This document shows positions 2,361 to 3,900 of a stretch of DNA of 64,000 bases, in pieces. Source of the DNA: Actinomycetes bacterium (GTDB lineage Bacteria; Actinomycetota; Coriobacteriia; WRKU01; WQUG01); NCBI GenBank assembly GCA_031272275.1, contig JAISUC010000012.1, forward strand, positions 2,052-66,051. The letters are read 5' to 3'. The position numbers and the translations under genes are program-made. Positions within the stretch are counted from its first letter, which is position 1. Each line of letters opens with the position of its first letter. Under the pieces are notes generated by a model. It worked only from the letters and a program-made list of their open reading frames with translations, was not told where the DNA came from and did no database searches.

Positions 2361-2808
2361 CTATGGTTTCAACCGCGAAAACATCCAGCGCGCGGCTGCG
2401 CGTTGCGCGGGCGTACCGTGAATCATTTTCTTAGCGGCCTCGAGCGTCGGCTGCGTCGGTTCCTTTTCGCGCGGTTTACCCGCACGCTTGCGTAGCTTTC
2501 CCGTGAACACGGGCTCCTCGAGCGGCTTGCTGTTCGCGGTTCGGTAGTAGGATTGCAGCACGCCGTCCATCCACGGCGCTTTCAGGATATGCGCACGCAC
2601 GCCCGCTTGGTCTAGTTTGAAATCAACCTTTGGCAATGTAATCCCTGTTTCTGTTTGGAAACAGCCTATTGAGATTCGTTTGGAATCTGCGCTCTATGGC
2701 GCCATCGGGGTCGTCTAGCCGCTCCACCTTGCGCACTCCGATATTGCGACCGTCCCAACGGCTTTCGGTAAATGGTTCACGTATACTTTCGTTCGGTTTG
2801 CTATACAT
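2361..2808 (-). pseudogene. Two overlapping small ORFs (61 aa and 91 aa) in different frames, possibly one frameshifted hypothetical gene
   Basis: ORFs 2623-2808 and 2361-2636 overlap by 14 nt on the same strand. No recognisable family. Confidence 0.25.
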
Positions 2809-3802
2809 GCGGCAGTATCATCCTTTGCGTTAGAATCAGTTGCCAGTTTTCAACCCGTGCGTTCAATATCAGCATACTACAACCGTGCGCACAAAGCACC
2901 TCCTGCTCCTTTGTGCCCTCCGCGCTAATGCTCGTAACGTCATAAGCGGGCATACCACTGGGCGCTGCAATCTCACTCTTAACCACCGCCTTTTCAGAAG
3001 TGACCACGATATCGCTGACAGGAGCTCCTGTCGATACATATGAGGTAGAAACGAAACCCGCCGAGGTGATTATTTCGCCGCTCATTCCGTCCAGTATTTC
3101 TTGAGCGGCACCTGACTTTGCCATCCCAAGGCGAATCAATTCCCTTGTTTCATCCTCGTCAAGTCCAAAGTGCCACAGGCTCCCGTCGCCACGTGTTAGT
3201 AGCGTGTCGTGCGGTAGTCCACCGCCGCCCTTTAACGCATTCTGTATCAGTGTTGTATCCCTTGCTACGTCAGCAGCGTTTGACCCTTTATACAGTTTGC
3301 GCAGCAGAAGATTTATGTCTGTTGATTTGTCTGTGTATTCCGTAATAGCGTCACGGCTTGCCTGTGGCAGCGAAGACAGGTATCGCGACGCCATCCTCGC
3401 GTCCCGCGCTGTCCAGCCCGTTGCATGCAGCGGCTCGAACTCGTACGGCGTCCGCTCGTACAGGTCGTTCAGCATCGCGTTGCATTTCCGCATGCGTCCC
3501 TCGAACTCATCCACCTTAACGCCGTTGTCAATCTTGCCGAACCGACAGTGACAGTGCGAATGTGTCGCATAGTTTATATCGTGATAGTCGGTGCTCCGTC
3601 CCGCCTGCGCGAGGCACCACTCGCATGCTCCTGGGTTCGGGTCGCGGTAGTAGTAGACGCTCATCGCCCCGCGCCAGGTCGATGCCCCCGTCACGAAATG
3701 CACGTGACGGGGACTGCAGTCCGGCGGCTCACGCCGCCGGTGGATTGCCACGGCGACTGCGTCGCCTCGCAATGACGAAATGTAGTAGTACCCGCCCCGC
3801 AT
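2801..3802 (-). CDS. ADP-ribosyltransferase (C3/VIP2-type exoenzyme fold) fused to the C-terminal zinc motif of a phage Mu-F/SPP1 gp7 head-morphogenesis protein; N-terminally truncated remnant
   Basis: The ART domain carries its catalytic motifs: the R of TLLTRGDG, STS in GFVSTSYVS, ExE in KEQEVL, and the N-terminal YTDKSTDINLLLRKLY motif. The Mu-F type CEWC...HSHCHCR zinc motif is present with only about 90 aa upstream of it. Confidence 0.6.
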   Translation of the reverse strand: MRGGYYYISSLRGDAVAVAIHRRREPPDCSPRHVHFVTGASTWRGAMSVYYYRDPNPGACEWCLAQAGRSTDYHDINYATHSHCHCRFGKIDNGVKVDEFEGRMRKCNAMLNDLYERTPYEFEPLHATGWTARDARMASRYLSSLPQASRDAITEYTDKSTDINLLLRKLYKGSNAADVARDTTLIQNALKGGGGLPHDTLLTRGDGSLWHFGLDEDETRELIRLGMAKSGAAQEILDGMSGEIITSAGFVSTSYVSTGAPVSDIVVTSEKAVVKSEIAAPSGMPAYDVTSISAEGTKEQEVLCAHGCSMLILNARVENWQLILTQRMILPHV

Positions 3803-3838
3803 AATTGCCGCGCCCGCCTTCAGCGGGCTCGCAACGAC
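3803..3838 (-). repeat. REP-like family 2 copy (GTCGTTGCGAGCCCGCTGAAGGCGGGCGCGGCAATT) abutting and supplying the ATG of the truncated ART ORF
   Basis: Reverse complement of 3803-3838. Same ATTGCGAG / hairpin / GCGGCAAT architecture as the other copies. Confidence 0.45.
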
Positions 3839-3900
3839 GGGACAGAATAGTATCCTCCGTTCACGCGAGAGCGGAACGGCCCTTTATGCCCCTGGGCAGT

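Follow-up and report, generated by a model that had tools for sequence, protein, structure and literature searches.

A probable relic of a VG15/MuF4-type ADP-ribosyltransferase toxin gene abutting REP-like hairpins in an actinobacterial genome

The window analysed here, the whole 64-kb stretch of a 171,779-bp contig assigned to an Actinomycetes bacterium (all locus searches were confined to it), carries on its minus strand a gene in which a fragment of a phage head protein is joined to an ADP-ribosyltransferase (ART) domain. The best explanation for this open reading frame (ORF) is that it represents the 3′ two-thirds of a "MuF-type polymorphic toxin" gene in a decayed prophage or island beside a tRNA-Ser gene. 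What remains was probably once a VG15/MuF4-ART polymorphic toxin gene carried by a temperate actinophage; its capsid-targeting N-terminal domain and the virion genes have been deleted, and its broken end abuts a cluster of hairpins similar to repetitive extragenic palindromes (hereafter REP-like). An initial annotation had described a 5′-truncated fusion of a phage head-morphogenesis gene and an ART gene in a prophage remnant, and this description holds, with only the tail of the VG15 domain retained and the accompanying phage genes lost. The gene is deposited at NCBI as MDR1775435.1 (LBS17_03125, "MAG: Actinomycetes bacterium"), and its longest ORF contains the motifs CEWC (from aa 60), HSHCHC (aa 81), TRGDG (aa 203), STS (aa 252), and EQE (aa 299). 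Spurious ORFs of at least 100 aa are numerous on both strands of this DNA (~63% GC); the ART domain, VG15 match, and REP-like copies of the present ORF are far beyond chance.

2801..3802, minus strand: longest ORF, 333 aa, ATG start, stop codon included in the span.
2801..3802, minus strand: chimeric make-up of the same ORF, with codons 1-46 repeat-derived and the rest a phage-derived toxin gene remnant.
2804..3430, minus strand: complete C3-like ART domain, aa 125-333 (PF03496 envelope aa 139-317, 2852-3388).
3191..3193, minus strand: codon for R204 (the Arg of LLTRGDG), which aligns with the invariant catalytic Arg of C3-like ARTs.
3041..3049, minus strand: codons for S252-T253-S254 (STS motif), placed by alignment with C3-like ARTs.
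2900..2908, minus strand: codons for E299-Q300-E301, aligned to the Q-x-E of C3-like ARTs (MAFFT alignment A3).
3521..3661, minus strand: VG15/MuF4 head-protein remnant, aa 48-94, with the PGACEWC...HSHCHC Cys/His motif (PF25310 positions 142-193 of 212).

The ART domain is recognized by the Pfam family PF03496 (ADPrib_exo_Tox), which aligns aa 139-317 with profile positions 10-178 of 196 at an E-value of 7.8e-16 (58.4 bits against a curated cut-off of 23.4 bits; 59.9 bits when aa 105-333 are scanned separately), giving the significant match that the initial annotation had anticipated from this family. The same annotation had also assigned a C3/VIP2-type R, STS, and EQE set, and these residues (R204, S252-S254, E299-E301) do align with the C3-like catalytic positions: in a MAFFT alignment with 11 C3-like ARTs, R204 and S252-S254 occupy invariant columns, the column of E301 is the nearly invariant one of the catalytic Glu, and E299 lies opposite the Gln of QxE, from which it follows that the enzyme is of the ExE type. 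The register of the Arg and STS motifs is also borne out by alignments to PDB sequences and by a hidden Markov model (HMM) built from nine C3-like sequences with the query left out, which still aligns aa 137-267 (E 5e-11). The ExE register is set by the MAFFT alignment together with the behavior of the C-terminal fragment; the last 59 aa by themselves match positions 139-190 of the PF03496 profile (E 8.8e-4), a segment also matched by the QxE-containing tails of two C3-like proteins. Judged by the ExE motif, the residue modified by the enzyme is probably arginine.

The best PDB sequence matches of the ART domain are C3cer (4xsg) and Plx2A (5urp), with which the ORF shares the YT..IN..LR helix, the xRG(D/T)G arginine, and the G(F/Y)xSTS motif; a profile built up from these alignments picked out another 13 C3-like ARTs (in Paenibacillus, Bacillus, and Brevibacillus). 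Compared with the broader group of C3-like and binary-toxin enzymes (C3bot1, C3cer, Plx2A, C3larvin, Ia, CDTa, and VIP2, all PF03496), the likeness extends to a domain of ~210 aa and to a (Q/E)xE motif followed by a hydrophobic strand. The differences are nonetheless considerable: identity is 25-30%, ExE stands in place of the QxE of Rho-modifying C3 enzymes, Thr precedes the catalytic Arg, an 8-residue insertion follows the STS strand, the aromatic residues of the ADP-ribosylating turn-turn (ARTT) loop are missing, and the protein has no signal peptide and a phage context, whereas the C3-like proteins are secreted exoenzymes.

In sequence space the ART domain is isolated. A word-indexed search of 5.8 billion clustered proteins returned the same gene as its sole match, and an exhaustive phmmer search of 1.84 billion representatives (standing for clusters of ~15 billion proteins) returned only the protein itself and one other, a 241-aa protein from a Logan contig (hereafter P0002), matched through the head-protein motif and not through the ART. 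The domain is thus a singleton, with no detectable homologue among the 1.8 billion cluster representatives of 15 billion proteins. Searches by tblastn of INPHARED phages and PLSDB plasmids gave no match at E-values up to 1, a scan of IMG/VR with the whole protein gave none, and NCBIfam, PHROGs, and PADLOC offered nothing useful for the ART or for the two small ORFs (61 and 91 aa) that follow it. Across these searches no sequence-level similarity to any known ART was detected, the relationship being visible only at the profile level. Nor did a full-length VG15-ART relative turn up, and the truncation is therefore demonstrated through VG15 relatives bearing toxins of other kinds.

The head-protein remnant belongs to the VG15 family (PF25310), a family of actinophage post-portal head proteins named after L5 gp15. 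The score lies just below the curated cut-off of 26 bits when the whole ORF is scanned (25.9 bits) and above it when aa 47-111 are scanned alone (28.7 bits). The phmmer match to P0002 and the 15 viral relatives described below back the assignment independently. A piece of the head domain is thus present, as first proposed, but its assignment to the Mu-F/SPP1-gp7 family did not survive, as Phage_Mu_F (PF04233) gives no match in the ORF at E-values up to 10 and VG15 is matched instead. The estimate of ~90 retained residues likewise shrinks to ~50, corresponding to profile positions 142-193 or the last quarter of VG15, the 46 N-terminal codons being repeat-derived. Residues C60, W62, C63, H81, C84, and C86 are invariant in our alignment of this segment (A5).

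For the "MuF4" family, Jamet et al (2017, PMC5576092) took gp4 of mycobacteriophage Angel as seed, a protein whose strong match to VG15 (5e-32) identifies VG15 as the MuF4 branch of the MuF polymorphic-toxin superfamily. SPP1 gp7, by contrast, matches PF04233 (6.8e-33) and not VG15, and when a VG15-like alignment was compared with SPP1 gp7 in hhalign, the CxCRC motif alone could be aligned (probability 1.3%, not significant). Because of this null result, we take the link between MuF4 and MuF1 solely from the HMM-HMM comparison in PMC5576092.

Evidence for truncation comes from viral relatives of the remnant. IMG/VR was scanned with a two-sequence alignment (aa 47-97 of the ORF and the N-terminus of P0002), and 15 viral loci were confirmed by tblastn. 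In all 15 the gene is in one piece, with the PGAC[EK]WC...H..C.C motif at aa 148-236 of its ORF, such that 147-235 residues precede the motif, compared with 13 (at most 13 of them homologous) counted from Met47 (M47) in the ORF studied here. The short relatives (186-234 aa) match the entire VG15 profile (e.g., L125 at 9e-57), and the long ones (432-519 aa) bear C-terminal extensions with toxin-like domains: the glutamine deamidase Gln_amidase (PF15644) in L136, and three different HExxH metallopeptidase-like domains in L124, L126, and L127. Each of these four toxin-tipped genes is followed by a small overlapping ORF, and the gene order among the viral relatives is TerL, SPP1-type portal, VG15-like protein, small ORF (104-112 aa), scaffold, and major capsid protein. 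When three VG15 proteins were used as tblastn queries, only their C-terminal parts found a match, at 3521-3700 of the window. As ~150 N-terminal residues of the domain (and the codons for them) are absent, the gene is 5′-truncated relative to all 15 canonical relatives; the breakpoint lies at about 3665-3700, a position now taken up by the REP-like hairpin cluster.

A MuF polymorphic toxin has been defined by a C-terminal extension of at least 100 aa with a toxin domain, followed by a small ORF of <150 aa (Jamet et al, 2017). In the present gene, 239 aa carrying PF03496 follow the motif, and an ORF of 61 aa overlaps the stop codon. The definition also places such genes in temperate phages or prophages; at this locus the signs of one are of a relic kind (a neck-like gene, tRNA-Ser, and low GC), with no packaging gene, integrase, or att site found in the window.

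2623..2808, minus strand: 61-aa ORF whose ATG overlaps the ART stop codon (ATGTATAG); called by IMG and not by PGAP.

Small ORFs are a known feature downstream of MuF toxin genes (PMC5576092), and among toxin-bearing VG15 genes overlapping ones are found in L126, L127, and phage Angel (gp5). The 61-aa ORF has no homologues in Pfam, NCBIfam, tblastn, and related searches, and is a candidate immunity gene by virtue of its position. The resemblance to the MuF4 branch (Angel gp4; PF25310 VG15; L5 gp15; PMC5576092) comprises the C-terminal Cys/His motif, the toxin domain of >100 aa after it, and the small overlapping ORF. The locus departs from that branch in keeping only the last ~50 of ~200 VG15 residues, in having no portal, terminase, or capsid genes, and in being joined to REP-like hairpins; MuF4 members sit directly after the portal gene, whereas the gene upstream here encodes a RhuM-family protein (PDC-S05). 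A second point of comparison is the EFV toxin of an Enterococcus faecalis V583 prophage, a MuF1-ADP-ribosyltransferase fusion (cited in PMC5576092). In both, an R-S-E ART bearing an ExE motif is fused to a phage minor-head protein of the MuF superfamily; the MuF1 domain (PF04233) of EFV is complete, and our ORF matches VG15/MuF4 instead.

The composition of the gene changes along its length. Third-position GC drops from ~0.70-0.83 at aa 47-150 to ~0.40-0.63 at aa 151-333 (2801-3664(-); about 0.75 to about 0.5), so that the ART core is compositionally unlike the VG15 remnant and linker; this step is only suggestive, and would fit a toxin tip gained by recombination.

The 5′ end of the ORF is made of repeats.

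3804..3839, minus strand: REP-like hairpin copy 1, (CGTCG)TTGCGAG-CCCGC-TGAAG-GCGGG-CGCGGCAAT (core 3804-3834).
3790..3802, minus strand: 13-mer ATGCGGGGCGGGT beside the REP core, holding the ATG of the ORF; an identical copy, at 31433-31445(+), directly follows another core.
3744..3777, minus strand: REP-like hairpin copy 2, (CGTCA)TTGCGAG-GCGAC-GCA-GTCGC-CGTGGCAAT, within codons 9-20 (core 3744-3772).
3686..3740, minus strand: a further pair of perfect, GC-rich hairpins (3721-3740 and 3686-3712), separating the REP copies from the point where phage homology begins.

Copies 1 and 2 form a tandem unit of ~60 nt (direct repeat D1). The pattern TTGCGAG-N-GGCAAT occurs at six sites in the window against 0.08 expected, and five of the six are true hairpins (3744-3772(-), 3804-3834(-), 31327-31361(+), 31396-31430(+), and 50556-50586(+)), whose inner stems differ in sequence yet stay complementary. 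The copies are intergenic, both in the window and in other genomes, and the 266 nt from 3640 to 3905 fold far better than shuffled sequences (z -4.25). Codons 1-46 are thus repeat DNA with no protein homology. The ATG at 3800-3802 had been placed inside a REP-like element; more exactly, it sits 1 nt outside the hairpin core and within the REP-associated 13-mer ATGCGGGGCGGGT. The span originally given to the gene (2801-3845) is correct for the ORF itself, its upper bound additionally taking in the upstream REP-like copy. The further proposal that the repeat supplies the start is right in that the ATG of the longest ORF lies in the repeat, but use of that start is doubtful: three starts are in circulation for this gene (3802, M47, and Met110), of which PGAP uses Met110 (M110, 224 aa), IMG uses M47 (287 aa), and neither uses the ATG at 3802; the start of P0002 is equivalent to M47.

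The hairpin family extends well beyond this genome. An exact-pattern scan of GTDB species representatives for GTCATTGCGAG-(variable stem-loop)-CG(C/T)GGCAATC(C/T) found at least 120 loci (L003-L122). The family is not lineage-specific: the matches listed include Alphaproteobacteria, Azoarcus, Oscillospiraceae/Clostridia, Sedimentisphaerales, and Nitrospiraceae, as well as candidate phyla radiation (CPR)/Patescibacteria, Dehalococcoidia, and Bacteroidota. We considered whether these matches were due to chance (~260 expected for 18 fixed bases over 596 Gb) and rejected this, given that among the matches listed GT precedes the pattern in 125 of 132 and C follows it in 127 of 132. Around half of the listed matches have an apical stem flanked by GA...GA and loops of GAA or GCA, and some loci contain 3-5 intergenic copies within 8 kb. 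No family in Rfam 15 matched the hairpins, and searching the literature for the literal sequence turned up nothing but unrelated primers. As with REP and bacterial interspersed mosaic elements (BIMEs), these are short, GC-rich, imperfect palindromes, intergenic, frequently tandem and frequently sited 3′ of a gene whose orientation they share; they differ from those of E. coli and Pseudomonas in their consensus (GTCATTGCGAG-(variable stem-loop)-CGCGGCAATC(C/T)) and in their occurrence across many phyla. A family so widespread and absent from Rfam may merit separate study.

Taken as the remains of a VG15/MuF4-ART toxin gene, the locus suggests the following history. The ancestral gene would have been located directly downstream of the portal gene. 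On the model of SPP1 gp7 and of the MuF-toxin hypothesis (PMC5576092), its N-terminal VG15/MuF4 domain (~200 aa) would position the protein at the portal, inside the capsid; the C-terminal C3-like, ExE-type ART would be packaged, injected with the DNA, and would then ADP-ribosylate a bacterial target, with the small overlapping downstream ORF conferring immunity. Since both the capsid-targeting domain and the virion have been lost, we infer that the ART can no longer be delivered, and the gene is now most likely a silent or weakly expressed relic. Read-through of the hairpins gives rise to an artificially long ORF with its ATG at 3802. Were the gene translated, M47 or M104/M110 would be the expected start, yielding a cytoplasmic ART, which would either need neutralizing by the product of the 61-aa ORF or be non-toxic to the host.

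If this account is correct, the 333-aa ORF is an annotation artefact in which hairpin repeats are read through into a broken phage gene, and the locus adds one more to the muf genes that Jamet et al reported in prophage remnants. A minority of muf genes lie in such remnants, and ARTs make up 14% of known MuF toxins (both PMC5576092). Toxins of the MuF type, ART variants included, are already described there, as is the presence of muf genes in prophage remnants, and the unusual aspects here are confined to the sequence isolation of the ART and to the REP-like junction. Together with the viral relatives, the locus would also show that the toxin tips on the VG15/MuF4 head proteins of actinobacterial phages are interchangeable (ART, glutamine deamidase, HExxH). 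The ART domain, as a singleton among ~15 billion proteins that is ExE-type, C3-sized, and atypical in the Thr-Arg of region 1, could modestly interest toxin enzymologists.

Several observations weigh against a decayed relic, or against parts of the case for it. Past the breakpoint 287 codons remain open with every catalytic motif intact, so that selection for function is possible. Counts from a promoter and terminator scan around the ORF are the same as in shuffled sequences and hence uninformative, and Shine-Dalgarno (SD) pairing energies for the candidate starts (3802, M47, and others) do not single out one of them. The prophage boundary is unmarked: no integrase was found, and no repeat of at least 12 nt that could represent an attachment-site (att) duplicate of the tRNA-Ser gene. 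Region 1 of R-S-E clade ARTs is an "aromatic-Arg" motif, in which an aromatic residue directly precedes the catalytic Arg; here the residue is Thr203 (L-T-R), against V-Y-R in at least 90% of sequences in the C3-like set. The predicted structure, too, carries caveats. A single-sequence AlphaFold2 (AF2) model was unusable (predicted local distance difference test, pLDDT, 38), and one made with a 12-row C3-like alignment is of low confidence (pLDDT 52, predicted template modeling score 0.49) and biased by that alignment. A Foldseek search of the PDB with the latter model gave top matches that are all ART toxins (E 1e-8 to 1e-6, template modeling score ~0.5; C3bot1 at 1e-8, then Plx2A, Certhrax, C3larvin, Ia, and CDTa, with the ART-ARH toxin-immunity pair 8za7 also listed), and thus agrees with the profile result, although this agreement is partly circular because the alignment behind the model consisted of C3-like sequences.

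P0002 is a further point on the same side. It is the closest relative of the head-protein remnant (45-50% identity, tblastn 1e-10, Smith-Waterman (SW) z ~24; phmmer E 6.9e-4 among 1.8e9 proteins), and it is a separate, complete 241-aa cistron with its own AAGGAG site 8 nt upstream, which begins 10 aa ahead of the CxWC motif at a position equivalent to M47 of our ORF; a naturally "short" gene starting at M47 is thus possible. P0002, which has an unrelated C-terminal domain, is encoded within 800-1899 of a 3296-bp Logan contig (L001, from SRR30067235), where it stands between a 122-aa ORF in a different frame, upstream, and a TerL gene, downstream. This contig may represent a naturally split VG15-toxin gene in a non-canonical place, upstream of the terminase rather than after the portal. 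The 122-aa ORF was considered as the missing N-terminal half of VG15, for which Pfam, SW, and hhalign gave no significant support.

These observations lead to the alternative that the gene is not truncated at all and instead makes up, undamaged, the second cistron (287 aa, read from M47) of a VG15-toxin system that is split by nature, as on L001, forming with the 61-aa ORF a functional toxin-immunity or "orphan" cassette that the host would retain for immunity against the ARTs of related phages, or as a recombination substrate swapping toxin tips into an incoming muf gene. The closest relative of the module has just this layout, with a separate ORF ahead of it; M47 lies 13 aa before the motif and is the start called by IMG; a homologue of the 91-aa ORF is also found on L001; the small ORF overlaps the ART stop codon, as in toxin-immunity pairs; and the fall in third-position GC is to be expected under toxin-tip exchange. 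Yet the split architecture is known from a single example on a 3.3-kb contig whose putative partner lacks significant VG15 similarity, no partner cistron precedes our ORF (only REP hairpins do), all 15 IMG/VR relatives are in one piece, M47 is without a convincing SD sequence, the window offers no full-length muf gene as a recombination partner, and the 61-aa ORF is without any homologues; we regard a natural split as unlikely. A related proposal accepts the decay of the prophage and would have a functional "orphan" module of a MuF-type system (intact ART tip, 61-aa immunity gene, and ~50-aa VG15 segment) kept afterwards for protection or recombination. The immunity gene would then protect the host against ARTs injected by related phages, or alternatively the cassette might use its conserved PGACEWC...HCxC segment to enter, by recombination, the muf gene of a superinfecting phage. 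Orphan modules of contact-dependent inhibition (CDI), Rhs, and MafB systems are similarly built (a 5′-truncated toxin gene, a short conserved piece, a complete variable tip, and a small ORF downstream) but lie downstream of a full-length recombining locus, and tblastn finds no full-length muf gene in the window. Such retention, which would extend the orphan-cassette logic of CDI and Rhs to capsid-delivered phage toxins, strikes us as quite unlikely.

Domestication of the ART as a host-serving enzyme (a toxin-antitoxin or abortive-infection effector in a defence island, free-standing in the cytoplasm, e.g., as in the PGAP model from M110) would suit the completeness of the domain (aa 125-333), its size close to that of stand-alone C3-like enzymes, its neighbors of defence or mobile type (RhuM/PDC-S05, Cas4-like DUF2779, DUF6847 with an AAA ATPase, and a HigB/HigA-like pair), and the presence of 8za7 among the Foldseek matches. 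Against this, the ART and the small ORFs have no match among the PADLOC models, the promoter scan shows no promoter-like site upstream of the ORF, the 50 retained residues of a capsid-protein domain would be without a role, and a gene conserved in no other genome (a singleton among 15 billion proteins) makes a poor candidate for domestication, which we hold to be very improbable. Least credible is that the ATG at 3802 is the real start and that the cell makes a 333-aa chimera whose first 46 residues come from hairpin repeats. It does give the longest ORF, and GAAGGCGGG, ~10 nt upstream, can pair with the anti-SD sequence (dG -8.1), but this pairing stretch belongs to the REP hairpin, forming its 3′ arm, the codons that follow are repeat DNA without protein homology, neither annotation pipeline uses the start, and at ~63% GC repeats can be expected to hold long open frames by chance. 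The relic of a VG15/MuF4-ART gene thus remains our preferred reading.

The surroundings of the gene are those of a small island rather than of an intact prophage.

2361..2636, minus strand: 91-aa ORF (LBS17_03120), neck-protein-like phage gene, overlapped by the 61-aa ORF and ~170 nt downstream of the ART gene.
1834..1926, plus strand: tRNA-Ser(GCT), bordering the island.
3901..4794, minus strand: RhuM-family gene, the upstream neighbor, PADLOC "phage defence candidate" PDC-S05 (full length, E 3.9e-117).
5007-6515, minus strand: Cas4-like DUF2779 nuclease gene.
6847-7305, minus strand: DUF6847 gene, divergent from the AAA ATPase gene.
7589-9769, plus strand: gene for a 726-aa CbbX/SpoVK-type AAA ATPase with weak IetA similarity.
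10010-10650, plus strand: HigB/HigA-like pair.

The 91-aa ORF is homologous end to end with an 89-aa ORF of L001 (SW 112, z ~19), and over its N-terminal half it shares 38% identity with an 80-aa ORF of an IMG/VR contig (L140) that matches the neck protein phrog_387 (E 9e-27) and lies between head closure and tail terminator genes; by these similarities it is a second phage-morphogenesis relic. Remnants of portal, TerL, or capsid genes were found nowhere in the 64 kb by tblastn with proteins from four phages. A weak match of the L5 portal (aa 221-320) within the DUF2779 gene (5670-6023(-), E 2e-4, 25% identity over 118 aa) was set aside as probably due to chance. The stop codon of the RhuM-family gene lies ~45 nt from the REP cluster. 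GC content is ~55% over 1-10 kb and ~62% in the rest of the window, and the region between the tRNA-Ser gene and a cobalamin riboswitch looks like a small defence or mobile island.

The riboswitch (RF00174, 115 bits, 10804-11024(+)) lies upstream of a 530-aa ORF (11122-12714), and from here the higher-GC core genome resumes. Farther along the window, an Rfam match to 5_ureB_sRNA (150 bits, 51870-52167(-)) is antisense inside a 573-aa ORF (51717-53438(+)) and probably reflects conserved urease coding sequence rather than a real small RNA.

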